A program made the translations under genes and the position numbers. Shown here one piece after another: positions 1,557 through 53,959 of a stretch of 64,000 nucleotides of DNA. Within the stretch, counting starts at the first letter, position 1, and the number at the start of each line of letters is the position of its first letter. The notes beneath the pieces are model-generated. The model was not told where the DNA came from and ran no database searches. It saw only the letters and a program-made list of their open reading frames with translations. The DNA comes from Candidatus Omnitrophota bacterium (GTDB lineage: Bacteria; Omnitrophota; Omnitrophia; Omnitrophales; Aquincolibacteriaceae). The stretch spans positions 250 to 64,249 of the forward strand of contig JAFGHI010000010.1 of the NCBI GenBank assembly GCA_016930235.1. Direction: 5' to 3'.

Positions 1557-2969
1557 TTACCGCTTTCTTTTTTTTTCAAGCTTAAACTTATCTCCCCCAT
1601 CAGGAATTTCGGTTGGATAATTCCCGGTAAAACAAGCCGTGCAAAACTCATGGGGTCCCTTACTTGTCGCTGCGAGCATTCCCTCTAAACTCAAGTAGCC
1701 AAGGCTGTCGACATCCAAAAACTTCTTGATTTCTTCCATTGATTTATTGCACGCCAGCAATTCTTCCTTGGAAGGGAAATCGATTCCATAATAACAAGGC
1801 GAGATATGCGGCGGACAACTGATTCTCATATGAACTTCGCGGGCACCGGCTCGCCTTAGCAAGGAAACACGGGACTTTGCAGTATTCCCCCGGACAATTG
1901 AATCATCGACGACCACAATTCGTTTTCCTTCAACCACTTTTCGAATCGGGTTGATTTTGATTTTAACCTTAAAAGACCGTGCTTCCTGAACGGGATTAAT
2001 AAAAGTCCTACCGATATAGTGGTTTCGCGTGAACCCATGCCCTAAAGAGATCCCGGAAGCTTTCGAAAATCCCATCGCGGCAAAATTTCCAGAATCCGGA
2101 ACCGGGATAACGAGATCGGCATTAGCCGGATGTTCCTTGGCAAGATTCATCCCCATCTTTTCGCGGACCAAACCAACTGTATCTCCAAAAACAAGTGAGT
2201 CCGGCCTGGAAAAATAAACGTGTTCGAAGATACACTGCGCCTTTCTCCGTTTTGATTCCCCAAAAGGGAAATGACTGCGAACTCCTTTTTCATCGATCAC
2301 AATAACTTCACCGGGCTCAACATCCCGGATGTACTCGGCTTCAATAAGATCAAAGGCGCAACTCTCCGACGCTAAAACATAACTTTCTCCTAATTTCCCA
2401 AAACAGAGGGGCCTGAAACCATAGGGATCTCTCACACCAATCAGCTGTGTTTCGTTGAGAATGACTAACGAATAAGCCCCTTCCACCCGTTTAACCGATT
2501 CCACAACCGCTTCTTCGCAATTCCGATAGCTCGGTTTGGCAATTAAATGGACAAAAATCTCGGAATCCATCGTGCTTCCAAAGATAGATCCGTAGGCTTC
2601 CAATTCGGAACGAAGAAGTTGGGCATTTACTAAGTTACCGTTGTGGGCCACAGCGACTTGCCCTCGGGAATAATCAACCCGGTAAGGCTGGGCATTAATC
2701 AGTTTGGAGGATCCAGTCGTCGAATATCGTGTGTGTCCGATAGCGATATGTCCCTTAAGATTTGCCAAACGTTCCGTAGGCAGAGCATCTCCCACTAATC
2801 CCATGGATTTATAAATATAAAGATCGTTTCCGTCGCTTGTACAAATCCCCGCGGCCTCTTCACCCCGATGTTGAAGAGCGAACAAACCCAGCTGTGTGAC
2901 ATAAGCAGCCTGAGGATGGTTATAAATCCCGAAGACCCCGCAAAACTCTTTAATGTTTTCGCCGCTCAT
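1557..2969 (-). CDS. purF: amidophosphoribosyltransferase with N-terminal propeptide
   Basis: The 470-aa ORF has CGVFGIY after a short propeptide (Ntn glutaminase Cys) and a PRTase domain (VVVDDSIVRGNT). Confidence 0.9.
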   Translation of the reverse strand: MSGENIKEFCGVFGIYNHPQAAYVTQLGLFALQHRGEEAAGICTSDGNDLYIYKSMGLVGDALPTERLANLKGHIAIGHTRYSTTGSSKLINAQPYRVDYSRGQVAVAHNGNLVNAQLLRSELEAYGSIFGSTMDSEIFVHLIAKPSYRNCEEAVVESVKRVEGAYSLVILNETQLIGVRDPYGFRPLCFGKLGESYVLASESCAFDLIEAEYIRDVEPGEVIVIDEKGVRSHFPFGESKRRKAQCIFEHVYFSRPDSLVFGDTVGLVREKMGMNLAKEHPANADLVIPVPDSGNFAAMGFSKASGISLGHGFTRNHYIGRTFINPVQEARSFKVKIKINPIRKVVEGKRIVVVDDSIVRGNTAKSRVSLLRRAGAREVHMRISCPPHISPCYYGIDFPSKEELLACNKSMEEIKKFLDVDSLGYLSLEGMLAATSKGPHEFCTACFTGNYPTEIPDGGDKFKLEKKRKR

Positions 2970-2999
2970 TGCTTATGCCTTTCTGATACGCATGTTCAA

Positions 3000-36114: not shown

Positions 36115-36525
36115 CTAAATCTCATGCACCCCGGCTTGGCCTAGGACTTCTTCAGCTGCGAAAATAGGAGCCTCCGCGCGCAAAGCTAGAGCCACGCTAT
36201 CTGAAGGACGGGCATCGATCATCACCGTTCCGTTTTCATTCCGCCGGACCTGCAATTTCGCAAAAAAAGTATTACTCTCCAATTTATCAATGACCACACG
36301 CTCCAATTTTGCGCCCAGTTTCTCAATCGCCGACAACATGAGATCATGCGTTAAAGGCCTCGGCGGTTTGATGCCGCTCAGCTTCAGTTTGATCGCATTG
36401 ACTTCAGCCATCCCAATCACAACAGGAAGATAGCGCGTCCCTTCCTTTTCCTTAAAAATAATTACTTGTTCGTTTCGATTTTCGTCAATCTTGATCTTGC
36501 TTAATTCCAGTTCAACGGTTCCCAT
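36115..36525 (-). CDS. bifunctional nuclease family protein (BFN/DUF151)
   Basis: MGTVELELSKIKIDE...LPVVIGMAEVNAIKL... shows the DUF151/BFN pattern. The start at 36525 overlaps the upstream gene by 14 nt. Confidence 0.65.
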   Translation of the reverse strand: MGTVELELSKIKIDENRNEQVIIFKEKEGTRYLPVVIGMAEVNAIKLKLSGIKPPRPLTHDLMLSAIEKLGAKLERVVIDKLESNTFFAKLQVRRNENGTVMIDARPSDSVALALRAEAPIFAAEEVLGQAGVHEI

Positions 36526-38182
36526 GAGTTTTCTTCTCTTCTGAGGCTTGATCGTTTTTAGCCAGCCGGAAGCGCCCGTTTTTTTCCCGGTTGACCTGAT
36601 CCTGAAAATGGAGATGGACACGTTTGCCTTCAACAATTTCTTTCTCAATAATTTCCTGTTCGGCCAGAATCTTTTCGATCTCCTGCTCGCGTGAGCGTAT
36701 TTCGCTCTCGATTTCTTTCTGCTTCTCAACAAGCTCCCTGAAATAACCCTCTTTCTCGACTAAACGATCCGCCAATTGACTTCGCTTCTCGTGAATTCCC
36801 TGTTCGGCTTGAATTTTACGCATCTCCTGTAATTGCCGTTTAGCCTCTTCGATTTGCGCATCATAACCTTGAAGCTTCTGGATGGCTCCCTGAAGCTCTG
36901 TTTCTTGTTTTTCACAAGTCCGGCAGAGTTCCGTCACTCTCTCTTCGGACCCCTTGTATTTGGACTCCCAGGATTGAGAGGTTCGCCGCGCTTCCTCCAG
37001 TTCCTGATATAGCTTAGCGCGGTCTTTGTCCACTTCTCTTAAACGGTCTTCTACCTTTTCACGAAGTGTTTTCTCGGTCTGCTGTGCCTCCTGCAAGATA
37101 TGGATCTGTTGTTCTAACGTCTCCTGTTTTTCACGCCAACGGCTCAATTGTTCGCCGCTTACCCGCGCACCCCGTTCTAGGTTTTCCTTCTGCCGTTCCA
37201 AATCCTTAACGCTTTCGGCAAGCTCTTCGGCCTTGAGACGCCACTGGTCAATCATTTGGGTCGCCTGTTGAAGCCTCTCCTCCAGTTGTTTGTTTTTTGT
37301 CTCCAATTCTCCCCGGTACTGACGGCCTTGTTCTTCCTTCTCTTTGATCCGGCTTCCGAAATCAAGCCGCTCGTTTTGAAAAACCCTCGCATTTTCCTCG
37401 AGTTCTTTATTGCGTTTGCGTAAGGTCTCCATTTCTTGACGCGTTTGGACCATCTTTTCTTCAAAAAGCTCTCTCGCCTCCCGGTACTCGTCTTTAAGGA
37501 CATCATACTTTTCTTCTAAATTGGAAAGCAAGGCACGTGCCTCTTTGATCTCCTTTTCCCTTCCTTGAAGGAGGCTTAACTCCGGAGCCGGCAACGGTCT
37601 TTGAGCACGAGCCTCTTCAAGTTTTCGAATGATCTCCGTTAATCGGGAAACTTCTTTTTCAAGATCTGCGTGGGACCTTTTCCAATTTTCAATTTCAGAT
37701 TCCAGTTCGCGCCGCTCGGGTTCCGGCAACCCTGGAATCGGCATTACCTCCGCGTGCTCAGACTTTTCCGGGCTCTCTCTCATCATACGGATCGCATTTA
37801 AAGCCTCATCAGGTCCCAAAACCTCTTGGACCTCTTGATTCTTCTGATGACTCTCCCAAGTATTGAGAAACGCTAAGTTGGGAGGTTCAGGCCAAACGGT
37901 CCGGTAATATTTTCTTTTGCGGAAGGTATCATTGGTGAGAACGATTTGAGCATTGGCGGCTTCAAAAAAACCCTTCACTTTATGGGCAATGTCTTGATTC
38001 AGATTATCCAAAAGAATGATGGGTGTGCTTTCTACCAAATCGCTGGCTTCTTCGGAGGAAAGTGAAAAGACTTCGGAAATTTTGAGGGCAATCCGTTTCT
38101 TGTCGATCTCGCTCAGAATCGGATTCAGAACAACACACCAGTTTTGCTTTTCGCTTCGCGATTTCTTATTGCCTAGCAACAT
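36512..38182 (-). CDS. L7/L12-C-terminal-domain-like protein fused to ~450-aa coiled coil
   Basis: The N-terminal ~80 aa (EEASDLVESTPIILLDNLNQDIAHKVKGFFEAANAQIVL) closely parallel the ribosomal L7/L12 CTD (EAKDLVESAP...EAGAEVEV). The remainder is an uninterrupted E/K/R/Q-rich heptad coiled coil. Confidence 0.6.
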   Translation of the reverse strand: MLLGNKKSRSEKQNWCVVLNPILSEIDKKRIALKISEVFSLSSEEASDLVESTPIILLDNLNQDIAHKVKGFFEAANAQIVLTNDTFRKRKYYRTVWPEPPNLAFLNTWESHQKNQEVQEVLGPDEALNAIRMMRESPEKSEHAEVMPIPGLPEPERRELESEIENWKRSHADLEKEVSRLTEIIRKLEEARAQRPLPAPELSLLQGREKEIKEARALLSNLEEKYDVLKDEYREARELFEEKMVQTRQEMETLRKRNKELEENARVFQNERLDFGSRIKEKEEQGRQYRGELETKNKQLEERLQQATQMIDQWRLKAEELAESVKDLERQKENLERGARVSGEQLSRWREKQETLEQQIHILQEAQQTEKTLREKVEDRLREVDKDRAKLYQELEEARRTSQSWESKYKGSEERVTELCRTCEKQETELQGAIQKLQGYDAQIEEAKRQLQEMRKIQAEQGIHEKRSQLADRLVEKEGYFRELVEKQKEIESEIRSREQEIEKILAEQEIIEKEIVEGKRVHLHFQDQVNREKNGRFRLAKNDQASEEKKTHGNR

Positions 38183-39967: not shown

Positions 39968-42900
39968 TTACGCGGCTTTTTGGATTTGGAGAGCAGCCTG
40001 GACTTCTTGACGCAACAAGCGATCAATCGCGGAAACATTCACAATCGGGCGTCCCTCGGAATCAAAAACAATAATCTGATTTTCGGGTCCTTCTCCCATT
40101 TGCCGAAAGAGATAAACGGCTTTGAGGAGTTCGGCTTGGACATTCTTAGCATCTGTTGAAGTCCTGGCCATTAAAGCAGAGGCAAACGCGAACGCCGTTT
40201 GAGTCATCCTCCCCAAAACTTGAGATTCTAATTTAGCTTCGCTTGTAAGGCGAATGCCGACCGGCAGAACCTGAGCCGTCTGCTCCATAAGAATTTCATC
40301 GCTAAACTCCATGACGGGCAGGACATTCTGTCCCGAATTTAGGATGGTCACCTGCCGGGGACTGGATGCCGCCGTAAAGGGAATCGGTATCGACTTTAGA
40401 ACTTGGATTAAAGCATTGGCGGCCTTTTTATCGCCGAGAATAGCAAAGCGATCCAATTCTCCCCGCAGGAAATAGGACCGGATGATATCCCCGTATTGTC
40501 CGATCGCGCTTTCACGATCCAACCTCGAGATCCCATCTTTTAATTCAGGAATATCCAGCCCCAAAGTTACCTTGCCTTGATAGGTATCTGCCACCTGCTG
40601 CATGAAAGTTACAAGATCCCGAACCGCCCGTTCCGCAATTTTCGACGTCATGCTATAAACTTCAGGCCTGTCTTCAAAAGCTGTGCCGAATCCTTGACGG
40701 CTTAAAAGTTCTTCGACGGCAATTTCGACAGCCCGCTTGAGAACCTGTTCCAGTTCCGCACCGTCAATTTGATGCGCGACGATCGGTCGCACGGCTGAAA
40801 GCACCTCCGATTGATCAGGCAAAACAAAATCTGCGGCTAATGCTTCGGCCGGAATCAAGGATCGCGCAATCGTTAAAGCACTGTCCACCCAAGTTAAGCG
40901 GAGTTCCGAACGGGGTTCCATCGGTGTGCCGTAAAGTTCCTCGGGCGTCCATGTTCCATCCCAGCCCTCCGGTTTCTTCATCACCGCAAGTTTTTTCAAA
41001 GCAGGCTCAGGTTTGGGTTTTGCCTGCAGCAGAGATTGTCCTTGCTTCTGTAAGCGAATCTGCTGCCAAGAGGCAAGCGGAAGCATAATTTCGATCTTCC
41101 CTATCCCGGGTAAAAGCGGGTTCCGAAGATGATACTCGATTTGGACCCCCGAGTCGGCCGCAATTCCGACCAGAACTTCCGTAAAGATCTCAAAGGCATC
41201 CCAAAGAGGATTGCTTACGCGATAACCTTCGCTCATTTGAGGACGCTCGGGTAGGGGTAAATAAACGCTCACACCCTGCTGCATATCCGGTCTCGATTTA
41301 ACAAGTTCAAAAAGACGAAGAAATTGTTCCCGGTAAGATGCCTCGTTCCACCCACCCTCATTAAAATCCGCAATGCCTTTCTCGGGATAACCCGCAATAT
41401 CCTGATCCAGGGCATCCAGCGTCATGACGCGCGGAGCAGGAGGTTTCGCGGTTCTTTTATACTCCTCGGCAAAAGTCGAAGCCGCCTTTTCTCCCATAAC
41501 AACAAACCGTTCATTTTGTCTCAATAACCCTTTTTCATACAAGATATCAAAGACCTCGCGAATCGGCATTTCTTGCCTTAATTCCGAGCGAACTTCTTCA
41601 GTCTGGGGGATTCCGGGACCCCGGAAAGACTTCGTGGCAACAAGATAATGATATTGCCGGTTATCATCCAGAAGGGTTCCGCGCTGAACATCAGACCATT
41701 TGAGGGCCTTAAACGCTTGGAGATCGCTTACTGTGAAGGGTTCCTCTTGAATGGAAATAAAACGGCCCCCCGGATTCAAGACAAGCCAGGCAACATCCGT
41801 CTCATTTGTTTCAACCACCGTTCCCTTAGTCAAAATTGAAAAGACAATATCCTGACTCTCTTTCCATTGAGGATTTTGATACTGGCTTAAATCACTTTCT
41901 CCGGTTAGAACAACCGTCTTCTCAGTTCCTGTCAATCCCAAGAAAGAGTTTAAGGAATCACGCAATCGGGATCCGATCGAAATATCAACCGTGCCGCCAA
42001 CTTCGGAAACTTGAGAGGTTTCGGACAATCCGGGCTGTTGTTGGTAGGGTTGCTGCCTTTGAGGTTGTTCTGCGGGAACTCGCTCCACTTCCGGAACAGG
42101 CTGAACAGCATCAGGAGAAATACTCTTCGCCTGCACCTGAGATGAAATATCGCTGATCTCACGTAACTCCGAACGCGGGCGCTGCCTTCGCGCAATCTTA
42201 AACCTCTGAAACACGTTCCCCTGCAAAATCCTATCCTGAATGGTGTTCTGCAACCGGCTCACCGCTTGATCAAACTCATCAACCGATGGCATCTGTTCTC
42301 CGCCCGCCAAAATCCGCTCAACGAGGGGCTTGATCTGTGATTCAATTTCCTCTGGTGTCGTATTCCGGACAAATTCCAGCATCTCCGGGACCTGATTCGT
42401 CTCAGCCACCTGGTAAACTTCAATCTCCGGCCGTATCAAGCGTAAAGCCAGAAGGGCCAAGAGCAAACGCCTGGAACCACCCCACACACCGTCAACTGTT
42501 ACCCACTTGCCTTTTGAATTCATAGAAGCCGCCACTTCCGCAATCTTTCCGACCAGATTCGGATGAAGCTGTCTAAGTTTCTTTTGCGCCTTTGGATCAT
42601 CGCGCCCAACCTGATTAATCGAAACCATTAAGTCATTTGACCCGACAGCATAAAAATCCGCATCGGGAGATATCATGGCATTCTCCTTCTCAAACATAAA
42701 ACCAATAAGGATCTGATTAATAATCTGACGCGCCTTTTCTTGCTCTTCTTCGACAATCCCGCTTAAATACTCCGTTTTAGCCTCCTCAATTAATTCAAGG
42801 ATACCGTTTATGTCTCTCTGATCAATAATATCCGGAATAAGAATATGCAAATTGACTTCGGGCTGCGGCCCCTTTCCTTCTCGCGCAAGTTCTTCTAAAC

Positions 42901-45900
42901 GATTATAAGCAGCAACCTGAGCCTGAAAAAAAACCATCAGCTGCATTTTGCCGAATTCCCGAAACTGTTTGAACAAGTCTCCATAATGTGGGTGAGTGCC
43001 TTCCTTATCCAAATAGAAACGAACACCCAAACGGTTGCGCCCTTCTTCTAAGGGGATCTCTAAAATCCTTCTCACCTCATCTGGTTTTCTCCCTTCGGTA
43101 AGGATCTTCGGGCGTTTGTCCATCTGAACATCAAAAATTCTCACAATAAAAGGCCGCCTTACCTGGAAAAAAGGCTGCATGAGAATCCCTTGGATTGTCT
43201 GTGCGAATCGGACCCGGTCATTTTCAATCCCCTGCCATCCGGGATGGGCCGCCAATTGCTCGGTTCGAAAAAGTCCGACACCCTTTCCACCGTGACGCTC
43301 AACAATCGACCGCAGTTCGGCCCGCCTCTGAAAATCCTCAGGTTTCGTATCATCCACATAAAATAAAATCTCCCGACCCGCAAAGAAAACCGGCTCATCG
43401 GCCCGGGCAAGAAAAAAGGCATCTAAATCAGCATAACTTTCCCTCCTTGCAAACCATGTATCCCGCGTTTGGTAATCAGGTCTCAACACAACGAACCCCT
43501 CACGGCCATCAGCCATGGCCCAACCCTGAAGTGTTTCCTTGGAAAATTCTAACCCGGCAGCTTCAAAATCTGCAGCCGGTATCACTACAATCCCCAAATC
43601 CCGGGCGAAGGTCACCCAATGTGACAAGCTTGTGCCACCCGGGCTCACAATCGCAACAACCCTTCCGTGACCACGCAAAGAACTCAAAAGATGGTAAAGA
43701 TCCCGCTCATTCTCAATAGTCTTCGCGAACACCACCAAATCACGATCGACTTGTTGGGTTGGGCCAAAGCGTGCACGGTCGTAATAACGCATGAGAAATT
43801 CAAGCGCCTCAGGTTCAACATCGTTGACACGCCTGCCCTCACCGCCCCTATTATCCGCATAAGCATTGAACATAGGGATCATGGTTTCCTGAAAATAACT
43901 GATGATGCCAGCTTGAAAAGGATCGTCTGGCTGAATTCTCTCCCATTGGCCACTGCGTATCTCATCCAAAACATTCTGAAAAACCTCTGCGGCATGCTGC
44001 CGGTTCTCACGAACCCGCCGTGAGATCTCGTCAAAAATCATCCGCAAAATCTCCTCAACGGCATGCTGCTGCTCCTCGCCAACCCATTGCCTGATCTGCG
44101 TGACAACTCCCGGAGGGAGGAATTCCATTTCAGCGGGCACCTCCCCTTCAAGGGGCATCTCTAACACTATTTTTTTATGTCCCTCCCAGAATCTTTCCAG
44201 GACTCCAGCCTCATTTTCAAACGTCTGTTGGGCCCTTAAATCCATAAAATGGCGCATATAGAACAATGCCGTGAGATATTCGATAGACCGGCCGGTTTTT
44301 AAAATATCCTGGCGTACCTGAAAGTCAAATCTCTTCACCCATGCTTTCCATTTTTCGATGTTTGTATGTGCCTCTTCATGCAAGGTCCGATCAACGGCTG
44401 CAATGCTGGCTTCGTCTTCTTTCTTTTTAACCATCGCGCTGATTCTCTTTTGAATTTCCGCCTCATAAGATGCCGTAATGGCATCTAGAAATTGATCCAG
44501 AACATCAACCATAACCTCTTCGTGCCGGCGAACTTCCTCTTCTTTTTTTACCTGAACTTCTTCCTCAAGATCACTCATCTCAAAAATATAGTCATACGTA
44601 TCCAAATCTTCTTGGATGCTTTCAACATACCCTCGAAGCTCTTCATTCACTTGAATCATGCGTTTAAAAAGTTCACCACTGGGTAAATTACGGAAATTTG
44701 CAATATGTGCGTTGAGAAGGTCAATAATAATTTGAAGGGCTTTTTGAGGCGTTTTCCCCTTATCAAGGTGGTAAGCCAAGCGCTCAAAGACATCCATCTT
44801 GATCGTCTTAGGCCTGCCATGTTCATCGATTGTCATACCATAGACTGTATTATCAGCAAACATCCTACGCCTCGTATAGGAAGCTTCTTTCTGACCGTCC
44901 GCAAGCTTAGAATCGTCTGTATTCAAACCAAAAGGCAAATTCAGGAACAAATCAAATACTTTGGTCATCAACCGGTCTTTGGCGGTTTGGATTAAGACTT
45001 CGCGGACTTTTTTATTATGATCCTCGTCGGGTAAATGGATAAAATCCTCCCGATTGACAAGGGCAGGGATCACCGACCCCTGAATAAAACCCATGGCATA
45101 TACCGTCGTCGGGGCAGGAGCCGTTTGTTCTGCCAACTCCCGTTTCATTTCGTCAAGCATTTGCCTTAAGACTTCATCACTTCGGCTCTCTTGATGGCGG
45201 ACCCGATAAATAGCCTCTTCAAGAAGAAGCCCTAAAACTTCTTGCATTTGTTCCCCTAAAGACATCTGGCGCTCACTCTCATCCAAAACGCGCCGCCAAA
45301 TATTTGTTAATGCATGGACTTCATTTTCAACCTTTTGGGCAGCTTCCCGTGGCGTATCAAAAGGGCGGACAAGCGAGAAATTCACGCGCTTGGCTTCCCT
45401 TTCCCAAGTAACTATTTCACCCGAGGCAATAACATTCATCGCCGGCGAGGATCCCCGAAGGATCAGATTGTTAGGTCCTGTTCGAAGCTCGGAGCGTTGT
45501 GATTTAGATTCCGCCTGCACCGGGACTGACGGGACATCGACATAACGTTGATGGATAGCAAACTGCTGGAGGTGATGTATCAAAAGTTCGATTCTCCACC
45601 GCCAAGAACGGATGACTTGATAAGACAGCGTTACGGCAATCGCTGCCATCAGGGTTAGAACCGAACAGGACAAAGCAAAAGGAATATTCCCTTCATCCCA
45701 AGAAATTGCCACACGAATTAAAAAAACAATGCCTGCCATAGCCGTCATACTTCCCACTAAGAACCAACGAAATCCGGCCGCAAAAATCGAATTATACAGC
45801 ATGTCTTCATCCAACACGTCGACCACTTCTTGAATTCTTTCTTGGATATTCAAATCTTCATCCTCCAGAATTTCTGTGATTTCAGCATCATTGGATAGGC

Positions 45901-48900
45901 GCAACCACAAATCCCGATAAACGGGATTGTTGATTTTTTGATCGAGCCAACCCGCAAATTCCCCGCGAAGACCTGTGAGATCTTCATCGCGAAATTCTGA
46001 ACGCAAGTTAACACCGGCGGCATCATCACCCGCCCATCTCAACATGGGCTCACCTGATTTCCTTTGTGCAATTTCAAGCCCCCCATTCCCCCAAGTAAAG
46101 AAAATCCCTTTCCACCACAAAGCAAGAGAAGAAACCAAAGCGAAATCCGCAAGAGCACTCGTTAAAAGATTATTCGATGAAGGATACTCCCGGACTTTTT
46201 CGATATCCCCGATTGCAAAACCTCCGCGCTTTAATAAATCCCGCTTAATCGAATTAACTTGGTAAATTTCTCTCCGTCCCTGAAACTCTTCACCTGGAGC
46301 AGGAGATCTCTTGATATCCTCGTAGTAATAATTCGGCGCTTTCTCTAAGGTCAAATCCAATCCGCCATTTTCGGCAATGGCTTTCTGTAATTCCATGGGA
46401 AGCGAAGATAATTCCTCAATCTGTTCACCGCCCAAAAAGTAAACTGTCCGAAGTTTCTCCCGACCTTCCTCCGGATGCCGCCACACAAAAGATATTGTCC
46501 AACGGTCCCTACCAAGCTCTAAGCGGTTAATCGTATAATCACGCACACCTAGTTCTTCTAAACTCATTAAGAAAAGGGTGCGAATATTGATGCCCAGAAA
46601 ACTCATTGTCAAGATGCCGTGAACGCCGCCCTCATCAACTCGCGATGCATGAACTCGTTCCCGTAAAAGGGGCTGATATTCCTCCCCTTCCTCAGAAACC
46701 TTCTCACCGAAGGTAGCCTGATCACTCATGATAAGCTGCGTTGCGTTCGTCGTAAAAAGAGCACGAATAACATCGAATCCCGAATTAAAATACCAGGCAA
46801 ATTTTTCTTCATTCTTCCGGTTGACCTTGGAGCGAATGGCATCCAAAAATTCATATTCACTAACCCGCATCCACTCGCTGTAGTCATGGGCGCGTCCTTC
46901 ATGGATCCAAGCCGCATCCGAAGTAATGGCCGGCTCCGCCCGCGCAGGCTTTCTTAACTCCGAACGGCCGAGAGATTTGCCGGCCACCGCCGGAACTTTC
47001 GTCTTCTGAATCTGCCGAGCGACAAGATTCCAGACCGTAAATTCATCGAGTTCAGATGTAAAAATTATCCGACGGCCGCCGTCGAAAACCAAAGGTTCAG
47101 CGGCCTTAAGCAAATAAGTGTTGTTGGCAACAACGTTGCGGACGGCCCGGATGTACCCCATAAAATGATCACTCCTCGCAGCAGATTGGGCTTGAGGGCT
47201 GCTGTTATAATAATTAGCCCAATAAAGAATTTGATCATTGTTCCCCTTTGGGAGCGGCACCGGGATAAGAAGGTACTTGATCCGCGCAAGAAAGACTGCG
47301 GCGGCGGGATGAACTTTTAAATACTCTTGGAAGTCGCGGGAACTTGCTTCTTGGCCGGACGCAAACCACCTGAGTGTTACCTCATCGACATCATAAAAAA
47401 TAGGCATGGCCATGGCGGTCCAGTCCTCACGCCCCAAAACCCGACTCAAGAGATATTCCGCCGATCCAGGTTCACCTCCATAGAATTCGTCGGTCTGCAA
47501 TTGATCGGACTCCACCACAAGGGTCCGGGTCAAAAGTTTTTGGATATTCTCCCGGTATTCGGGTGATTCCTCTGAATCCGTCAACGCCAGAACAGCATCG
47601 ACGATTTGAACAAGCGGAATGAGACGGGTTTCAAAGTCTAGTGCGTTTTTATCGATCTGAAGGCGGAGATTTTGATCCATCGGCGTAAGGGCAGTGACAT
47701 GTTCTTCTAAAGGCTGCTCTTCTTGAGGAGAAACTTCTAATGGAATTTCAAACGGTTTCGTAACAGCTGGCGTTTGCGGCACTACCGTTACGTCTGCTGG
47801 AGCTCCAGCCTCAAGAGGAGCCTGATCTAAGGGAGCAATAATGATGGAAGAGGGTTCTTTGACCGTACCCGCTGCAACTCTCGAAATTTGCCTATCGATG
47901 ACCAACACAAATCCAAACGCAAGAACCGCCAACATATATCCCGTGAATATATCGAAAACACGTTTCCCCGAACGATAAAACCAGTTCGTTCCCAATAGAA
48001 GAATTCCGCTCCCCGCAGCAAGAACGAAAACCGCCAGCAAAGGAACACCGAGATGGTGTCCAAAACGGACGATCATCGCCGAAGCCATCGTGAGTGAAAG
48101 AACCGTCATCAAACTTGATACTAAAAAATGTCGAACATTTTCCCAATCAATGATTCGCTTTAGCATCCTGAACTGGTCCGCTCTAAGTTCCGAACGTTCA
48201 CTTGTCTCAAGAGAAGACGTCTTTTCGATTTCTTGACGGACAAGACGCCAAACTTCGAATTCTTCAAGATCGCGCGGCAAAACCGCAATTCCATCGATCT
48301 CGATGGGTTGAGTTACGCTTAACGGATAACTCTTCCCCGCCACCTTTGCGCGGGCCGCTTTAATAATTGCGCCAAAGTTATCCACTTTGGCCGCCCGTTT
48401 AGCTTTTGGACTTCCGTTGTAGTAGATGGCCCAATAAAGAATTTGTTCATTTTCACCAAAAGGAATGGGCGAGCGAAAAAGCCGATATTTGACCCGAGCT
48501 AAAAAGATTGAAGCTGCAGGATGGGTGCGCAGATATTCTCTCAATTCCCGTGAACTTTTGTCCTTGCTCGACGCAAATCGCCGGATCGTCGTTTCATCCA
48601 CATCATAAAAAACACGTTGGACAATAGCCTTCCAATCCGCCCGCTGTAAAATCCGGGTCAAAAGATATTCCGCCGTTCCGGACCCGTCTCCGATATTAAC
48701 TTCAACGTTGGCCACACCCGCCCCGGGGCCTCCCCGATATTGTTCGTCGGCCCGCAGTTGATCCGATTCCACCACAACGGTTCGGGTAAGAAGCTTACGG
48801 ACATTTTCCCGGTATTCCGGCGATTTATCGGAATCTATGAGTGCTACAATTGCGTCAACAATCTTAACGAGAGGAATCAAGCGGGTTTCAAAATTCTTGG

Positions 48901-51900
48901 CGTTTTTATCGATTATAAGGCGGAGGTATTCATCAATCTGTTCATCGGTGAGAGCCGCCTTTCCAATACTGCTCTGCTCCCCTTGCAGAACCCGCTTTAC
49001 GGCTTCAATCACATTCGGTTCGGGAATATCACGAATGGGGGCAACGGGTGCTGCTTTTTCAATGGAGGCAGGTGCTATTTCCGGAGGAGGCCTCGGGGCT
49101 TCAGGCGTAGTTGTTCGGCTTATTCCGACTTCCTGTCGAGCTTGGACATCCCTAACATCCTTCATATGCAGGAACGATACGACTCCAAAGGTGAGAACAA
49201 AACTTAAAAGGCCTACCATGATATTCGAAAAGCGCTCACCCAATTTGAGTTTCCTGCCGGTAAAATAAAGGAAATACGCAAAACCGGCCAAAAGGAAAAA
49301 AACAGCCGCCGGAGAAACTCCCAAGTCGTATATGGCTGGAATACCCAAGACCGGCACACCGAATAAAACAGATAAATCAAAAACCAAAGACGCCAGGTAT
49401 TTCGTCAGCCGGATATCCCATGATTCTTTTTTAGCGATTGCTTTTTCCGCCCGCAGCTCGGATCTCTGTAATGGTCCAAAAATCGCATCAACTTTTTCCC
49501 TTATAACACCGGCATAAGCAAATGCCTGGAATTGATCAAATACCCCCAATCGTTTCGCCGCGTTATAAGCCGGCACATGCACTTTACCCACCTTGTCACT
49601 TACAAGTATGAGAAACATTTCTTGTTGATACATAAAAGCAGAGCCTTTAAAAATTTTAGCCATGAGAACAGCGCCCACCATAAAATCGCCCCAAAGCTCT
49701 CCCCATTGGACCACAACCTCGGGAGTAATTGCTTCATCCGTAAAAATAGCCTCCATCAAATCCATAGCACCTGAAAGCTTTCCTAAAACCTCAACGGACC
49801 AACTATAATCTAGCGCCTGCGCTCTTAGGGCCTCATTGTCAGAAGCAAGGGAGTAATTCATCAACATCAAAAGGGTATTAGCCGCACTGACTCGAATTAG
49901 CGGCATTGCAGTTCCATCCCCTACGAGATCACGCAAATCATTCATCACCTGAAGCGCATCCATACCACTTTGACTTAAAGCCAAACCTCTGCCGGTCAAT
50001 TCACGCAAGGCATCTTGCCGCGCCTTCACATCGATACCCTTGTTTTTCGCATTCGCAAGCAAATCCTGAATCTCCGCCCGCAGTTCGGAGCGGGTATCTG
50101 CGGAAACTGCTTCTACTTCTCCTCGGCGCAGTTTGCCTTCATAAATCAAAACACGGGCTTGGAGAGGATTTAATCGATGAATTGCATCAAGGGCTTTGGG
50201 TAAAATATCAAGCCATTGGAGCGTTTTTCCGGCCCTCTTGATGCTAATTCGTCGCTCATAGAGTTTGGCATCCGGCCATGTCTCCCACTCGGCAATCCTT
50301 TCCAACGTATCCTGCACCCACATCTCGGGATTAAAACCAAAAATTAAACTCTCCGTTTGTTCTTCAATTTCGTTACGCGATAATTCCATAGCAGCTTGGA
50401 TTCGACCTTGGAGGCGTTCCTCAATGGATTGGATTTCGATCACGGCTGCATCCACATTTGGGTTCATCGCATAGATACTCCCTCCCAAAATATTGGTAAC
50501 TTGGACAAGATTGATCTGTAATCTTTGTAAACTTGTAAGCTCCCTGACGTCATCATCACGGACATCCCCTTCAAGATGAGTCCCTAAGACACGCAGCTGA
50601 ACCAAGACATCCGGCAGAAGAGCCCCGTTTAACTGATCGATTCTTTCTGCAATCGCCGCACCCTCTGTAAGCTCCTGCTCGAGAACCCGTTGAAGCCGGT
50701 CAATAGCCACATCCGCATTGATCAATGCAAGAAAATAATCGTTGATAAGCGATTGCCTTAATTCTGAACGGCCCGACACAAGCACCGACTCACGCATCCT
50801 GGCTTCAACCATCAAGTTGCGCAGTGTTTGCTCTAATTGTTTAACTTCCGCCGGGTCTTTAGAATCAAGATACGGCATCATCAATTCCGAAAGCTGGACC
50901 ATGCGGTAAATCGCAAAAAGAAGATCTGGCATATCCATCTCTTGGATGGCCTGTTTTGAAGGTAATCGCGTTACTGCCTCTTGAATAACGGACTTCTCGA
51001 TTGGCTTATCATCACCAATGTTGGCCACTGCTTTGATCTGCTCAAGCCAAAGGTCCAGGACTCCTCTCACATTATCCAAGATCGCTATTTTCTCCTCGAA
51101 AGCAGGCTCTCTTTGATAAAAGCTCATCTTTGTAAGATCACTCAATGCTAAATTAAACTGGCTTATCTTTCCGGACAGTCTTCGCAAAAACCAGTAAAGA
51201 GCACCCGCGTCAACAACGTCTCCTTGTATCCCGTCCCACAAAAGATTCATGACAAGCACGATTGATTGAATCACCCCGTGCAACCGGGTCTCTGTTAGCT
51301 CTTTCTGGTATTGCCGGGCCTCCTCATCCATGATGATCTTCTCCCCGATTGCCTTGTCAGCCAAAGTGAGCTCCTCCCCGATGATCTTCATGGTTTCTAA
51401 ACCGTTTACCACAAATGCTCTCCGACTTTCCGTCTGACTGAGATCAATCGCCGATGCCCCCTTGTCAACGGACATAAAACCTTGCTTCTGAAACTGAAGA
51501 ATCCTCAACGAGAGAACCCTCGAACGAAGCTTCGCGGCGTAGCTTCCGATAATTTCCATCTTTGCCTTAAGGGCTGCACTCGTCGCCCCTAAAGGCATCC
51601 GTGAGCCTCTGGATAGAGTTTCCAGGCACATAATCAACCCCTCAAATCCTTCAATCAACGGAATTTCACTTTCATGAACCGGAACCGGCGGTTCCCCTAA
51701 AAGTTGGTCAAAAACACTCAAAGCATCCAGAACACGAGTCAGATGCGGCTCAAACATACCCTGTAACATCTGCAGGATGAGCGGATCGCTTAGATTCTGC
51801 CGGCTAAAAGACATCGTCGCATCTAACGCTAATCGCGAGGATGAAAGTGCTCTCGCTAAATGCCGGGCCATTTGCTGGCTCGTCATACTCCGCAGTTCAG

Positions 51901-53959
51901 AGCGACCGGGGACTTGATCTAGGGTATCAATTTGGACCGGGATCCCCTGCAATCCACTAGGAACAACACCTTCTGATACTAAACGGCGTTCAACACCTAA
52001 GTGAGGCAAAACACCTGCAGGAAGTTTGGAAAGGTTAATGGCATCGCCGGCCGCAAGAACGGGGTAAGTAAAACCATCGGAGGTCGTGGCTGTCTGGAGA
52101 AGATTCAAGATATTTTGTTCGGTGAGGTCGCCTTGGGCGTCCAGATCGCGGATCCCTTGAATGAAACGTTCGATATTCTGAAGCCATTTTTGACGGAGTT
52201 TTTGGATGCTTTCTTCATCCAGGATTTCATCGATAAAGAGGGTATACTTCCCTGCTTGATCTAATCTCTTTTGGCCTGCCAAATCTCGGACAATTTGATC
52301 ACGCCAATGTTTTAAAAGGGTGCCGGGGTCTTCACCGCTTTCCTCAACCAGCTTATCGCGAGTCGAACGGATAAAGGCTTTGTAAATATTGATTCGGTCA
52401 TTCTCGACCCGGAAATACCCTTTCCAAGCCACCTCACCCCGCATATTTTGGCGGTAACTCGTTTCATCAGGAACCGAACTGATTCTTGGCATTACCAGAA
52501 CATAAGAAATTCCCTCTTGGCGGAAACGCTCAGTCAAACCTTCGGTATGAAAACCGCCAGCGATTAGGACACTGGAACTGTGTGAAGAGTAAAGAGTATC
52601 TCGTGAAGAGCTGCTCTGCATCTTTTGAATCAAATTTTGGTAAAAAGCCTGATCACGCGCTTCGGCTGTTTGATAAAAAGCGATGTGATGTTTTAAATCG
52701 TCTTGTCCCAGAGGGATTTCCTCAAATTCTTGACCTTGGATTATAGTTTCGATACGTTTCCAATCCTCATAGCCGATATTCAATTTTGCGAGCCTCGTAA
52801 GGAGATCCAGATGAAGGCCTCTGCGGTTAAGGTCCCGTTCAAGGTCAGTTCGGTAGAATTTCTCCTTCACGGATTCTGTATACGCCTGGAATTCCTTAAA
52901 AAGCCTTGTGCCGCGAAGATCCTTCATCCTCAGCTGATTTTGCATAAGGGGCTTAAGAGTGTTTGACACTTCAAGAGAAATCCCCTTTTCTTCGATGAGC
53001 TCCTTCATGAATAGCGCAAAGGCTTCGGGAGTTATTTGGGATATCTGAAAGGCCTGCCGTTTTTTATGAAAACGTTTAAGGTCCTCACGCCCGCCATTTG
53101 TCGAATCACCTTGATGCAAGAAATCCTCGACTTTTTCGGCAAGGGCCATGACTTCCCGGTCTAAATGAACGCGGTCCACGAATTGATTTTCGTATTCCCC
53201 CAAAATCAAATCGAGCTCGGACCCTTTGGCCAGCTTCTGATAATTTGAAAGTTTCTTCAGAACGGTTATGAAGGTTTCCAAATTTTCACCAAAATCCTGA
53301 AGCAAGCGATCGATCGCGAGAAGTTCTTCGGGATACGTGTTTTGTTTTTCTTCTTGAAGCCCTTTTTCCGCAATTGAAATTCTCCGGAGGAAGTCTTCTT
53401 CTTTCCCTGCCGCCTGAAGAAAATAGGCCAGCCCTTGTTCATAGAGATCCCAATTCTCAATCCCCTCATATTGGCCCTCGACATGGTTAAGAATCGCGGC
53501 AGCCGTACTTCCTGTAAGCTCCCCTTTTTCGTGATAATCATTTAATACCTTTTTTAATAATTCCTGATCCGGAAAACTTCTGAGGATCTGAGGATCCAAT
53601 CGGCTAGCAGCACCTTCTAAAGCGATGAGGTCCACACCGTAAGTCTCTTGAAAATATCCGATAAGCCTTTGAATATTTAGCTGAGCTTCAGGAATAGCGT
53701 GGGCATCTTGAATAAGGACAACGGTCTGATCGTTTTGGCCTTGATACCTTTCAAGAACCTCTCCGATCTTTTCCGGGATTTCGATCTTTGAAATTTCAAA
53801 GGGTATAGATTTCTCTAATTTTTTGTCAGCCAAAGGTAAGAGATTTCCCGAGGCGTATACAGGCAAACTTAGATGGTTCGTCACAAAGAAAGTCATGACG
53901 ACTATTAAAGCCACTGATTTAATGAGTGTAGACCTCTCCTGCATGAAGTCTCCCTTCAT
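39968..53959 (-). CDS. giant (4663 aa) secreted/multi-pass membrane protein with internal duplication, embedded PEP-utilizing phosphotransfer module and ten RSELR motifs
   Basis: A single uninterrupted 13,992-nt ORF. It has an N-terminal signal peptide (…LSLPVYA|SG) and hydrophobic TM clusters near aa 1425-1455, 1521-1600, 1945-2025, 2603-2625 and 2722-2785. Aa 3430-3500 resemble a PEP-utilizer phosphohistidine swivel domain (GGTSLSHWVTFARDLGIVVIP). Aa 3555-3800 resemble the PEP/pyruvate-binding TIM barrel (GVGLFRTEQL ... GSNDLMVSINQVGRDD). The second ATG at 53944 has the better SD (AAGGGAG). Confidence 0.85.
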   Translation of the reverse strand: MKGDFMQERSTLIKSVALIVVMTFFVTNHLSLPVYASGNLLPLADKKLEKSIPFEISKIEIPEKIGEVLERYQGQNDQTVVLIQDAHAIPEAQLNIQRLIGYFQETYGVDLIALEGAASRLDPQILRSFPDQELLKKVLNDYHEKGELTGSTAAAILNHVEGQYEGIENWDLYEQGLAYFLQAAGKEEDFLRRISIAEKGLQEEKQNTYPEELLAIDRLLQDFGENLETFITVLKKLSNYQKLAKGSELDLILGEYENQFVDRVHLDREVMALAEKVEDFLHQGDSTNGGREDLKRFHKKRQAFQISQITPEAFALFMKELIEEKGISLEVSNTLKPLMQNQLRMKDLRGTRLFKEFQAYTESVKEKFYRTDLERDLNRRGLHLDLLTRLAKLNIGYEDWKRIETIIQGQEFEEIPLGQDDLKHHIAFYQTAEARDQAFYQNLIQKMQSSSSRDTLYSSHSSSVLIAGGFHTEGLTERFRQEGISYVLVMPRISSVPDETSYRQNMRGEVAWKGYFRVENDRINIYKAFIRSTRDKLVEESGEDPGTLLKHWRDQIVRDLAGQKRLDQAGKYTLFIDEILDEESIQKLRQKWLQNIERFIQGIRDLDAQGDLTEQNILNLLQTATTSDGFTYPVLAAGDAINLSKLPAGVLPHLGVERRLVSEGVVPSGLQGIPVQIDTLDQVPGRSELRSMTSQQMARHLARALSSSRLALDATMSFSRQNLSDPLILQMLQGMFEPHLTRVLDALSVFDQLLGEPPVPVHESEIPLIEGFEGLIMCLETLSRGSRMPLGATSAALKAKMEIIGSYAAKLRSRVLSLRILQFQKQGFMSVDKGASAIDLSQTESRRAFVVNGLETMKIIGEELTLADKAIGEKIIMDEEARQYQKELTETRLHGVIQSIVLVMNLLWDGIQGDVVDAGALYWFLRRLSGKISQFNLALSDLTKMSFYQREPAFEEKIAILDNVRGVLDLWLEQIKAVANIGDDKPIEKSVIQEAVTRLPSKQAIQEMDMPDLLFAIYRMVQLSELMMPYLDSKDPAEVKQLEQTLRNLMVEARMRESVLVSGRSELRQSLINDYFLALINADVAIDRLQRVLEQELTEGAAIAERIDQLNGALLPDVLVQLRVLGTHLEGDVRDDDVRELTSLQRLQINLVQVTNILGGSIYAMNPNVDAAVIEIQSIEERLQGRIQAAMELSRNEIEEQTESLIFGFNPEMWVQDTLERIAEWETWPDAKLYERRISIKRAGKTLQWLDILPKALDAIHRLNPLQARVLIYEGKLRRGEVEAVSADTRSELRAEIQDLLANAKNKGIDVKARQDALRELTGRGLALSQSGMDALQVMNDLRDLVGDGTAMPLIRVSAANTLLMLMNYSLASDNEALRAQALDYSWSVEVLGKLSGAMDLMEAIFTDEAITPEVVVQWGELWGDFMVGAVLMAKIFKGSAFMYQQEMFLILVSDKVGKVHVPAYNAAKRLGVFDQFQAFAYAGVIREKVDAIFGPLQRSELRAEKAIAKKESWDIRLTKYLASLVFDLSVLFGVPVLGIPAIYDLGVSPAAVFFLLAGFAYFLYFTGRKLKLGERFSNIMVGLLSFVLTFGVVSFLHMKDVRDVQARQEVGISRTTTPEAPRPPPEIAPASIEKAAPVAPIRDIPEPNVIEAVKRVLQGEQSSIGKAALTDEQIDEYLRLIIDKNAKNFETRLIPLVKIVDAIVALIDSDKSPEYRENVRKLLTRTVVVESDQLRADEQYRGGPGAGVANVEVNIGDGSGTAEYLLTRILQRADWKAIVQRVFYDVDETTIRRFASSKDKSSRELREYLRTHPAASIFLARVKYRLFRSPIPFGENEQILYWAIYYNGSPKAKRAAKVDNFGAIIKAARAKVAGKSYPLSVTQPIEIDGIAVLPRDLEEFEVWRLVRQEIEKTSSLETSERSELRADQFRMLKRIIDWENVRHFLVSSLMTVLSLTMASAMIVRFGHHLGVPLLAVFVLAAGSGILLLGTNWFYRSGKRVFDIFTGYMLAVLAFGFVLVIDRQISRVAAGTVKEPSSIIIAPLDQAPLEAGAPADVTVVPQTPAVTKPFEIPLEVSPQEEQPLEEHVTALTPMDQNLRLQIDKNALDFETRLIPLVQIVDAVLALTDSEESPEYRENIQKLLTRTLVVESDQLQTDEFYGGEPGSAEYLLSRVLGREDWTAMAMPIFYDVDEVTLRWFASGQEASSRDFQEYLKVHPAAAVFLARIKYLLIPVPLPKGNNDQILYWANYYNSSPQAQSAARSDHFMGYIRAVRNVVANNTYLLKAAEPLVFDGGRRIIFTSELDEFTVWNLVARQIQKTKVPAVAGKSLGRSELRKPARAEPAITSDAAWIHEGRAHDYSEWMRVSEYEFLDAIRSKVNRKNEEKFAWYFNSGFDVIRALFTTNATQLIMSDQATFGEKVSEEGEEYQPLLRERVHASRVDEGGVHGILTMSFLGINIRTLFLMSLEELGVRDYTINRLELGRDRWTISFVWRHPEEGREKLRTVYFLGGEQIEELSSLPMELQKAIAENGGLDLTLEKAPNYYYEDIKRSPAPGEEFQGRREIYQVNSIKRDLLKRGGFAIGDIEKVREYPSSNNLLTSALADFALVSSLALWWKGIFFTWGNGGLEIAQRKSGEPMLRWAGDDAAGVNLRSEFRDEDLTGLRGEFAGWLDQKINNPVYRDLWLRLSNDAEITEILEDEDLNIQERIQEVVDVLDEDMLYNSIFAAGFRWFLVGSMTAMAGIVFLIRVAISWDEGNIPFALSCSVLTLMAAIAVTLSYQVIRSWRWRIELLIHHLQQFAIHQRYVDVPSVPVQAESKSQRSELRTGPNNLILRGSSPAMNVIASGEIVTWEREAKRVNFSLVRPFDTPREAAQKVENEVHALTNIWRRVLDESERQMSLGEQMQEVLGLLLEEAIYRVRHQESRSDEVLRQMLDEMKRELAEQTAPAPTTVYAMGFIQGSVIPALVNREDFIHLPDEDHNKKVREVLIQTAKDRLMTKVFDLFLNLPFGLNTDDSKLADGQKEASYTRRRMFADNTVYGMTIDEHGRPKTIKMDVFERLAYHLDKGKTPQKALQIIIDLLNAHIANFRNLPSGELFKRMIQVNEELRGYVESIQEDLDTYDYIFEMSDLEEEVQVKKEEEVRRHEEVMVDVLDQFLDAITASYEAEIQKRISAMVKKKEDEASIAAVDRTLHEEAHTNIEKWKAWVKRFDFQVRQDILKTGRSIEYLTALFYMRHFMDLRAQQTFENEAGVLERFWEGHKKIVLEMPLEGEVPAEMEFLPPGVVTQIRQWVGEEQQHAVEEILRMIFDEISRRVRENRQHAAEVFQNVLDEIRSGQWERIQPDDPFQAGIISYFQETMIPMFNAYADNRGGEGRRVNDVEPEALEFLMRYYDRARFGPTQQVDRDLVVFAKTIENERDLYHLLSSLRGHGRVVAIVSPGGTSLSHWVTFARDLGIVVIPAADFEAAGLEFSKETLQGWAMADGREGFVVLRPDYQTRDTWFARRESYADLDAFFLARADEPVFFAGREILFYVDDTKPEDFQRRAELRSIVERHGGKGVGLFRTEQLAAHPGWQGIENDRVRFAQTIQGILMQPFFQVRRPFIVRIFDVQMDKRPKILTEGRKPDEVRRILEIPLEEGRNRLGVRFYLDKEGTHPHYGDLFKQFREFGKMQLMVFFQAQVAAYNRLEELAREGKGPQPEVNLHILIPDIIDQRDINGILELIEEAKTEYLSGIVEEEQEKARQIINQILIGFMFEKENAMISPDADFYAVGSNDLMVSINQVGRDDPKAQKKLRQLHPNLVGKIAEVAASMNSKGKWVTVDGVWGGSRRLLLALLALRLIRPEIEVYQVAETNQVPEMLEFVRNTTPEEIESQIKPLVERILAGGEQMPSVDEFDQAVSRLQNTIQDRILQGNVFQRFKIARRQRPRSELREISDISSQVQAKSISPDAVQPVPEVERVPAEQPQRQQPYQQQPGLSETSQVSEVGGTVDISIGSRLRDSLNSFLGLTGTEKTVVLTGESDLSQYQNPQWKESQDIVFSILTKGTVVETNETDVAWLVLNPGGRFISIQEEPFTVSDLQAFKALKWSDVQRGTLLDDNRQYHYLVATKSFRGPGIPQTEEVRSELRQEMPIREVFDILYEKGLLRQNERFVVMGEKAASTFAEEYKRTAKPPAPRVMTLDALDQDIAGYPEKGIADFNEGGWNEASYREQFLRLFELVKSRPDMQQGVSVYLPLPERPQMSEGYRVSNPLWDAFEIFTEVLVGIAADSGVQIEYHLRNPLLPGIGKIEIMLPLASWQQIRLQKQGQSLLQAKPKPEPALKKLAVMKKPEGWDGTWTPEELYGTPMEPRSELRLTWVDSALTIARSLIPAEALAADFVLPDQSEVLSAVRPIVAHQIDGAELEQVLKRAVEIAVEELLSRQGFGTAFEDRPEVYSMTSKIAERAVRDLVTFMQQVADTYQGKVTLGLDIPELKDGISRLDRESAIGQYGDIIRSYFLRGELDRFAILGDKKAANALIQVLKSIPIPFTAASSPRQVTILNSGQNVLPVMEFSDEILMEQTAQVLPVGIRLTSEAKLESQVLGRMTQTAFAFASALMARTSTDAKNVQAELLKAVYLFRQMGEGPENQIIVFDSEGRPIVNVSAIDRLLRQEVQAALQIQKAA
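46952..48181 (-). repeat. giant-gene internal duplicated unit, copy 2 (aa ~1927-2336)
   Basis: Has the same TM cluster (HHLGVPLLAV / FGVPVLGIP; FYRSGKRVFDIF / FTGRKLKLGERF), Pro-rich linker and soluble module (NALDFETRLIPLVQIVDA...ILYWANYYNSSP...). It also ends in RSELR. Confidence 0.8.
48182..49450 (-). repeat. giant-gene internal duplicated unit, copy 1 (aa ~1504-1926)
   Basis: The unit is a TM cluster, a Pro-rich linker and a ~240-aa soluble module (NAKNFETRLIPLVKIVDA...ILYWAIYYNGSP...) ending in RSELR. It is paralogous to copy 2 at both protein and DNA level (e.g. ccaataaagaatttg at 48431 and 47221). Confidence 0.8.

Follow-up and report, generated by a model that had tools for sequence, protein, structure and literature searches.

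Bacterial giant proteins which process themselves are already known. The MARTX toxins of Vibrio and relatives are single polypeptides of 3500-5300 amino acids (aa) with arrays of unrelated, shuffled modules; a protease domain inside the toxin cuts the linkers between the modules and sets the modules free, and one MARTX effector, RRSP, is an endopeptidase of the TIKI superfamily (PMC6254334). The phylum Omnitrophota is known for giant genes (PMC10066038), and its long proteins have been described as 'Archaeovorins', as dockerin-type and as 'multi-enzyme metabolic cluster' proteins (bioRxiv 10.1101/2023.11.21.568195; 10.64898/2026.06.07.730766; PMC10066038). Whether these giants act whole or cleaved is a published open question; cleavage was speculated upon, and the cleavage points were called unknown, an obstacle to structural and functional dissection (bioRxiv 10.1101/2023.11.21.568195). 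Here we analyze a giant gene in 64,000 nucleotides (nt) of DNA from a Candidatus Omnitrophota bacterium (contig JAFGHI010000010.1; this whole stretch is called the window). The predicted protein of 4663 aa is punctuated by the pentapeptide RSELR. The junction motif is real and wider than one protein, i.e., it is found family-wide and is tied to an invariant, protease-like N-terminal domain (N-domain). An earlier note on this DNA had assumed that processing is undescribed for bacterial giants. This does not stand in view of MARTX autoprocessing and of the cleavage speculated upon for Omnitrophota; the concept of autoprocessing mega-proteins is not unprecedented. The new part is the motif together with the N-domain. 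The Omnitrophota papers report neither a junction motif nor a TIKI-like domain, the searched literature contains no description of either, and the motif strings turned up there only in unrelated papers on alginate lyases.

We consider it about an even chance that the giant protein is an autoprocessing polyprotein, MARTX-like in its working and built from different parts. The gene would then encode a membrane-targeted multi-module polyprotein, here with 11 modules, each an independent protein or domain; among them would be a phosphoenolpyruvate (PEP)-utilizing module which resembles Enzyme I, a pair of paralogous membrane modules and, at the C-terminus, a conserved module. Short exposed linkers, each with R-[S/A/G]-E-x-R and in the window genome strictly with RSELR, would join the modules, and the pentapeptide would be the recognition site of a sequence-specific protease which frees them. 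The prime candidate for this protease is the protein's own N-domain, invariant in the family and of the TIKI/TraB/Ere superfamily, which may act in cis or on paralogues in the same cell. The likeliest scissile bond is predicted directly after the second Arg (R|S/T/N/A).

The ten exact copies of RSELR which the earlier note had listed were all recovered with their amino acid and DNA coordinates (Table 1). From the composition of the protein itself 0.014 copies are expected, in line with the rough estimate of far below one, and in 2000 residue shuffles of the protein no 5-mer exceeded 3 copies. In the other reading frames and in the other genes of the 64-kb window RSELR does not occur. All five codons are synonymously variable: Arg1 CGC/CGT/AGA, Ser TCT/TCA/TCC/TCG, Glu GAA/GAG, Leu CTG/CTT/CTC/TTA and Arg5 CGG/AGG/AGA/CGA/CGT/CGC. 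These changes include switches between CGN and AGR and between CTN and TTA. Thus, it is the peptide which is conserved and not a DNA or RNA element, as had been claimed. A signal at the nucleotide level (RNA processing, recombination or a methylation site) and a chance or compositional artefact are effectively refuted by the variability of the codons, by the confinement of RSELR to the coding frame of the giant open reading frame (ORF), by the shuffles, and by a family pattern which is defined by amino acids.

Near-variants are almost absent from the giant protein; there are only RSEFR (aa 2653) and RAELR (aa 3546). Both had been counted, together with SRELR (aa 1803), as degenerate forms which indicate motif turnover. 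RSEFR and RAELR indeed fit R[SA]ExR, with the qualification that only 3 of the 449 family motifs have F at position 4. RAELR has no counterpart in two relatives which were inspected by eye, and may be either fortuitous or a further site inside the module, between Enzyme-I-like subdomains. SRELR was rejected. It is located inside the folded part of segment 5, at a position where the paralogue has SRDFQ, and the resemblance is due to chance. The notion of motif turnover is weakly based, since this chance resemblance is one of its three variants.

Table 1. Features of the giant gene and its product (window coordinates; empty cells, no entry).
Feature	Protein position (aa)	Window position (nt)	Strand	Remarks
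Giant ORF, 4663 aa, 13,992 nt		39968..53959	(-)	stop codon 39968-39970; member of the Omnitrophota multi-module giant family
N-terminal hydrophobic segment	10-34	53858..53932	(-)	signal peptide or signal anchor; Kyte-Doolittle scan; similar N-terminus in relatives
Conserved N-terminal domain	~50-625	52085..53812	(-)	TIKI/TraB/ChaN/Ere-superfamily alpha/beta core with large helical insertion; candidate site-specific peptidase
D85-A-H87	85-87	53699..53707	(-)	first His of putative 2His/2Glu set; H87 74/74, D85 72/74; matches RRSP E-x-H
E115	115	53615..53617	(-)	putative catalytic Glu; 74/74; 28 residues after H87
E168	168	53456..53458	(-)	invariant second Glu; 74/74
G468-G-F-H471	468-471	52547..52558	(-)	second His motif (GxxH) of putative catalytic set; H471 74/74, G469 74/74
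Predicted disordered linker	626-685	51905..52084	(-)	between N-domain and RSELR 1; AlphaFold2 (AF2) pLDDT ~25
RSELR 1	686-690	51890..51904	(-)	closes segment 1
RSELR 2	1064-1068	50756..50770	(-)	closes segment 2
RSELR 3	1290-1294	50078..50092	(-)	closes segment 3
RSELR 4	1499-1503	49451..49465	(-)	closes segment 4
RSELR 5	1922	48182..48196	(-)	closes segment 5
RSELR 6	2332	46952..46966	(-)	closes segment 6
RSELR 7	2822-2826	45482..45496	(-)	closes segment 7; immediately precedes shared segment-8 module
RSELR 8	3929	42161..42175	(-)	closes segment 8
RSELR 9	4124-4128	41576..41590	(-)	closes segment 9
RSELR 10	4350-4354	40898..40912	(-)	closes segment 10; immediately precedes conserved C-terminal module
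RSEFR	2653-2657	45989..46003	(-)	possible extra site; fits R[SA]ExR
RAELR	3546-3550	43310..43324	(-)	fits R[SA]ExR; inside conserved segment 8, just before PEP-utilizers_C barrel
Segment 5	1504-1926	48182..49450	(-)	transmembrane (TM)-like cluster, Pro-rich linker, soluble domain
Segment 6	1927-2336	46952..48181	(-)	paralogue of segment 5
Segment 8	2827-3933	42161..45481	(-)	Enzyme I/PPDK-like PEP-utilizing module; carried by many family members at differing positions
Segment 11	4355-4663	39971..40897	(-)	conserved C-terminal module, Rossmann-like alpha/beta fold

RSELR is the form which the window organism uses of a family motif, R-[S/A/G]-E-x-R. In Omnitrophica GWA2_52_8 the syntenic gene after ribE (L002) codes for a 1731-aa protein with a homologous N-terminus; it has four R[SA]ExR where 0.11 are expected. 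Every database homologue which extends beyond the N-domain carries RSEVR, RAEVR, RSETR or RAEAR just past this domain. An alignment-based scan of metagenome contigs yielded 80 family loci, mostly with giant ORFs and with up to 19 motifs per ORF; many of these ORFs exceed 4000 aa and are partial, as they are ended by the extent of the flanks. Full-length relatives reach 7647 aa (HMMER, exhaustive search with the 1200 C-terminal residues as query). For family statistics 74 non-redundant Omnitrophota giant proteins were used (241,243 aa). They contain 449 R[SA]ExR against 15.3 expected, a 29-fold excess, whereas control patterns (R[SA]DxR, K[SA]ExK, R[SA]ExK, K[SA]ExR and scrambled orders) range from 0.7x to 1.3x. 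A pattern-free search gave R.E.R as the top gapped tripeptide in most members. Position 2 is S in 349 and A in 100 of the 449 motifs, and at position 4 V, L, M, A, T, I and S are found.

The motif is almost confined to these giants. The 377 ORFs which flank family genes contain 65 occurrences, 63 of them in only 13 ORFs, of which 11 are longer than 750 aa and appear to be further, often tandem, family members. The other 364 ordinary flanking ORFs have 2 occurrences and the neighbours in the window have none. Motif-bearing proteins without an N-domain, which would be proof of recognition in trans, were sought; all candidates end at locus edges or resemble continuations of interrupted genes. As far as could be seen in these sequences, the family is so far restricted to Omnitrophota. 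Family genes are often in tandem or multi-copy per genome (flanks of L121, L125, L132, L133, L097 and L104; contigs Ga0247727_10000046 and ORBV01000022). In L153, L121 and L105 a stop or a frameshift appears to interrupt the gene while the frame continues; assembly errors, pseudogenes or recoding could be the cause.

The motif is positioned at module boundaries. Among 307 homology blocks shared between family proteins outside the N-domain, 32% begin within 10 aa after a motif and 18% stop within 10 aa before one (random, 4.6% in either case); 55 of the 307 blocks span a motif, 186 do so under random placement. In one member (P0018) RSESR is located on both sides of each of three Pfam Response_reg, i.e., receiver, domains. 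Recurrence in relatives, proposed in the earlier note as a check, is evident at three positions: the motif follows the N-domain in 71 of 73 members at a median distance of 52 aa, it is at the equivalent position ahead of the segment-8 module in 10 of 12 relatives, and it directly precedes the C-terminal module in 15 of 15 aligned sequences. The segment-8 module itself is placed at differing positions in different giants.

The sequences which surround the motif are linker-like or disordered, in agreement with a second check, according to which the motif should be found in linkers rather than in folded domains. The flanks are unrelated, as had been noted for the window protein; across many unrelated folds they carry almost no information beyond the five residues. 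Position -1 favours P, S, A and G and is depleted in D and E, and around the motif, from about -7 to +13, hydrophobicity is lowered. The view of a short linear motif at module boundaries is thus borne out by the homology blocks, the bracketed receiver domains and the linker-like flanks. A purely structural linker element, i.e., a helix cap or a salt-bridge staple with no recognition partner, is very unlikely. It is true that AF2 begins a helix at RSELR 686, at low confidence, and that a tail copy of the motif is in a helix. Yet R, E and R are strictly invariant with no enrichment of K or D substitutions, Ala or Gly replaces Ser at position 2, contrary to a capping box, and the uninformative flanks, the uniformity of variants within a genome and the stand-alone homologues which lack the motif (below) are equally at odds with such a role.

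At position +1, S, T, N and A account for 53% (background 30%); L, F, Y, W, R and P are underrepresented there, and H does not occur. This preference for small residues appears P1'-like, as is typical of scissile bonds. The distance between motifs has a median of 283 aa, with a second population at 10-50 aa; doubled or tripled motifs, 10-25 aa apart, are located in low-complexity or tandemly repeated linkers. Clustered motifs were seen in L123 (aa 749-793), L149 (aa 3469-3513) and L103 (aa 744-785), e.g., RSEMRLDTHVSRQQELFGTG three times. If there is cleavage at such clusters, it would set short spacer peptides free. Further, many complete members close with a copy of the motif, followed by 3-5 residues and -AA or -SA, e.g., ...YRSEARIKAAA. 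On account of these terminal copies the motif resembles a tag which each module carries at its C-terminus. The tail of the window protein, RQEVQAALQIQKAA, is a degenerate form of this family tail, R[SA]ExR-x3-5-[AS]A-COOH.

The terminal copies are the point at which a non-proteolytic docking site has to be considered. The giant would stay intact like beads on a string and the linker pentapeptide would bind a partner for folding, export, scaffolding or assembly; this partner could be the N-domain, the C-terminal module, a chaperone or a secretion component. Cleavage 3-5 residues ahead of the extreme C-terminus would be of little effect, AF2 models the C-terminal tail as a helix, and avidity would rise with doubled sites. 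Genome-specific variants of a short linear motif, located in exposed linkers, are what one would expect of a docking site as well. Against docking stand the P1'-like +1 position, from which bulky residues, basic residues and Pro are depleted, the invariant set of hydrolase-type residues within the same protein, and the modules, which are shuffled and occur also as stand-alone proteins devoid of the motif. We regard docking without cleavage as rather improbable.

The variants of the motif are set per genome. Seven proteins use RSELR exclusively (the window protein, P0026, P0036, L122, L125, L136 and L150), and L086 uses only RAE[AV]R. In L099 (metagenome contig ORMF012046182.1) six copies of RGEMR were noted and no R[SA]ExR; position 2 therefore is better described as 'small' than as Ser or Ala, and whole lineages can switch the variant. 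Motif variants are shared at 0.40 between paralogues on the same contig and at 0.13 between random pairs (p ~0.0004). Both L136 and L150 have exclusively RSELR despite N-domains which are only 34% identical. A single N-domain clade for the RSELR-only proteins was considered and discarded; they are not one clade. Such uniformity per genome would be expected if the motif co-evolves with a recognition factor which the proteins of a cell have in common.

The N-domain is the prime candidate for this factor. It has the alpha/beta fold of the superfamily, with a parallel beta-sheet core as in Ere, ChaN, TraB and RRSP. Across 74 members with about 30-45% identity Q84, H87, E115, G116, E168, R435, G469 and H471 are invariant. 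The spacing of 28 between H87 and E115 is that of His85-Glu113 in Bcr135 and of H3902-E3930 in RRSP. TIKI-family enzymes use a set of two His and two Glu (2His/2Glu), and RRSP and Tiki are site-specific endopeptidases (PMC6254334). Judged by its sequence pattern, the N-domain has the 2His/2Glu set which characterizes the TIKI/TraB/ChaN/Ere superfamily. Only the N- and C-terminal modules are universal in the family, and the N-domain is the sole universal domain with an invariant catalytic-type residue set. The C-terminal module has no invariant residues and is therefore unlikely to be a protease. Thus, the co-conserved protease for which the earlier note had suggested a search has a candidate in the same protein, its N-terminal TIKI-like domain. 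Among PDB sequences an N-domain profile matched only a hemagglutinin, which we rejected as spurious.

A separate protease, encoded elsewhere and acting in trans, might instead cut the sites; the N-domain would then be an esterase or hydrolase, or serve in substrate binding or membrane anchoring. It would readily explain that paralogues with very divergent N-domains have a motif variant in common and that the RSELR-only proteins do not belong to a single N-domain clade, and the TIKI superfamily does have non-protease members. On the other hand, the analysis of conserved neighbours, a search confined to the neighbourhoods of family genes, detected no co-located protease or partner gene which is kept next to them, and among the modules the N-domain alone is universal and equipped with an invariant catalytic-type set. 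A protease in trans is unlikely in our judgment.

Several observations weigh against autoprocessing by the N-domain. Cleavage is a prediction. The equivalence of the catalytic residues is judged from sequence spacing; no Pfam model, TraB_PrgY_gumN, Cofac_haem_bdg and Erythro_esteras included, and no NCBIfam model reaches its threshold for the N-domain (PF04187, 'Tiki superfamily, ChaN', matches weakly in 3 of 15 members, best E = 0.011, and not at all in the window protein), and a Foldseek comparison of the N-domain with the PDB was not significant. The fold alone does not make a protease because the superfamily includes esterases (Ere) and non-enzymes (ChaN, PMT). The uniformity of variants per genome is explained by a shared factor acting in trans no less well than by autoprocessing in cis. 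Motif-poor members, with 0-2 sites in 2000-4000 aa, retain an intact catalytic set; a loss of catalytic residues in these members had been considered and was not found. A signal peptide would place the N-domain outside the cytoplasm, and many modules of the relatives, e.g., receiver domains and methyltransferases, look cytoplasmic. AF2 did not dock RSELR 1 into the N-domain, on a shallow alignment. Lastly, in the AF2 model of the C-terminal module the tail which bears the motif in relatives is in a confident helix, which means that the sequence can also be structural.

How, then, does the autoprocessing polyprotein proposed here compare with the described systems? With MARTX it shares the array of unrelated modules on one giant polypeptide, and in the Omnitrophota family a linker motif is evident from the sequences; an internal protease which frees the modules is the proposed analogue, and a TIKI-like domain is found in both, as effector RRSP in MARTX and as candidate protease here. 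The differences are considerable. The MARTX cysteine protease domain cuts after Leu and is not known to require a strict pentapeptide. In the Omnitrophota giants the proposed enzyme is the TIKI-like 2His/2Glu domain at the N-terminus, and the sites follow R-small-E-x-R strictly. A Pfam scan of the window protein gave no match to the MARTX cysteine protease domain (Peptidase_C80) at E <= 1, and there are only 2 Cys. The protein has no Pfam match to RTX or other repeats either, and genes for a type I secretion system or an acyltransferase were not found among the neighbours. By appearance the modules are enzymes of a housekeeping type and membrane modules rather than known toxins, and the phylum is Omnitrophota. 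Judged by these features, the window protein is not a member of MARTX.

Polyproteins of viruses in which a protease is embedded, e.g., potyvirus NIa, picornavirus 3C and flavivirus NS3, are similar in other respects: one ORF serves for many products, the junctions have a short consensus with little conservation in the flanks, the protease is located within the polyprotein, and the consensus of the sites varies together with the protease from lineage to lineage. The Omnitrophota giants likewise display a recurrent consensus site at junctions between independently folding products. In contrast to the viral systems, this is a cellular, chromosomal gene beside a riboflavin operon with several paralogues per genome and a candidate protease of another family, and the processing is predicted.

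Within the TIKI/TraB/PrgY/ChaN/erythromycin-esterase superfamily (Tiki, RRSP, EreA-C, Bcr135/136, HopBA1) some members are site-specific endopeptidases, as proposed for the N-domain. The latter differs by its size of about 580 aa, by a helical insertion of about 290 aa between its halves, and by its fusion to a giant multi-module protein. The known Omnitrophota giants come from the same phylum and resemble the window protein by a signal peptide, TM helices and many unrelated enzyme domains on one polypeptide; dockerin or TSP3 repeats, a C39 peptidase and SecA-like domains were absent from the Pfam scan of the window protein.

The motif provides explicit predicted cut sites (R|S/T/N/A) and makes the question of cleavage directly testable. 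It also supplies a rule by which giants can be split into modules for structure prediction and annotation, and the N-domain is a concrete candidate enzyme with named putative catalytic residues. If cleavage is true, these would be a second, mechanistically independent kind of bacterial autoprocessing mega-proteins besides MARTX and a new class of substrates for the TIKI superfamily. Tentatively, and as a wider proposal of lesser probability, one may envisage an Omnitrophota polyprotein strategy. Ordinary enzymes, regulators and membrane proteins would be made as giant precursors and cut at a phylum-wide R-small-E-x-R by an unrecognised clade of N-terminally fused TIKI-superfamily peptidases, with a specificity which co-evolves in each genome. 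Genes of a free-standing bacterial chromosome would then be expressed in the manner of viral polyproteins, perhaps up to the giants of >30,000 aa whose cleavage points are explicitly unknown.

The RSELR copies divide the window protein (P0015 in our representative library) into 11 segments of 195-1107 aa, which corresponds to the range of ~190-1100 aa given previously. Segments 5 and 6 are the two paralogous units which had been said to end at RSELR. They do so; their identity is 44% over 397 aa (E = 5e-95), and no other internal repeats were detected in the giant protein. Segments 5 and 6 start with TM-like clusters, and segment 7 has such a cluster close to its end. A Pfam scan gave a single domain above threshold, PEP-utilizers_C (PF02896) in segment 8, with 54.7 bits at a cut-off of 22.8 (aa 3554-3841, window 42437-43300). 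C-domains of Enzyme I in the PDB match segment 8 at E = 1.6e-6. Segment 8 is not a full-length PtsI (NCBIfam TIGR01417, 44.6 bits at a cut-off of 341.7); with about 1100 aa it is Enzyme-I/PPDK-like with a long helical insertion. In P0024 and P0025 the segment-8 module is apparently followed by an HPr-like domain, seen by eye only from a GLHARP signature. Stand-alone segment-8 homologues of other bacteria have neither motif nor N-domain; such proteins in high-GC bacteria (P0019, P0028, P0031) have N-termini which by eye are signal-peptide-like.

An exact sequence look-up of the giant protein gave no match, a word-indexed search of a protein collection gave none for segments 5-6 and segment 11, and segments 5-7 have no relatives among the genome or metagenome contigs. 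By these searches most internal modules of the window protein are orphans. The Logan assembly of SRR13394437 contains a contig identical to that of the window; it is not independent evidence because it stems from the same organism. The 2 Cys among 4663 residues amount to 0.04%, an extreme depletion which might reflect an extracytoplasmic location.

The surroundings are those of an ordinary chromosome. The riboflavin operon is directly upstream of the giant gene, and the closest relatives of its RibE are all from Omnitrophota. Other neighbours in the window are thioredoxin reductase, purine biosynthesis genes, ligA, PBP2 and xerC/D. A 556-aa protein (36512-38182, minus strand) is by eye highly charged and coiled-coil-rich; its N-terminal ~80 aa weakly resemble the C-terminal domain of ribosomal L7/L12 (Pfam E = 2.6e-4, below threshold). 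The minus strand holds 41 of the 47 ORFs of at least 150 aa, and apparently nearly all real genes, of the window (1-64000), and GC skew is negative in every 2-kb bin. Both are consistent with a location in one replichore with a strong gene-strand bias.

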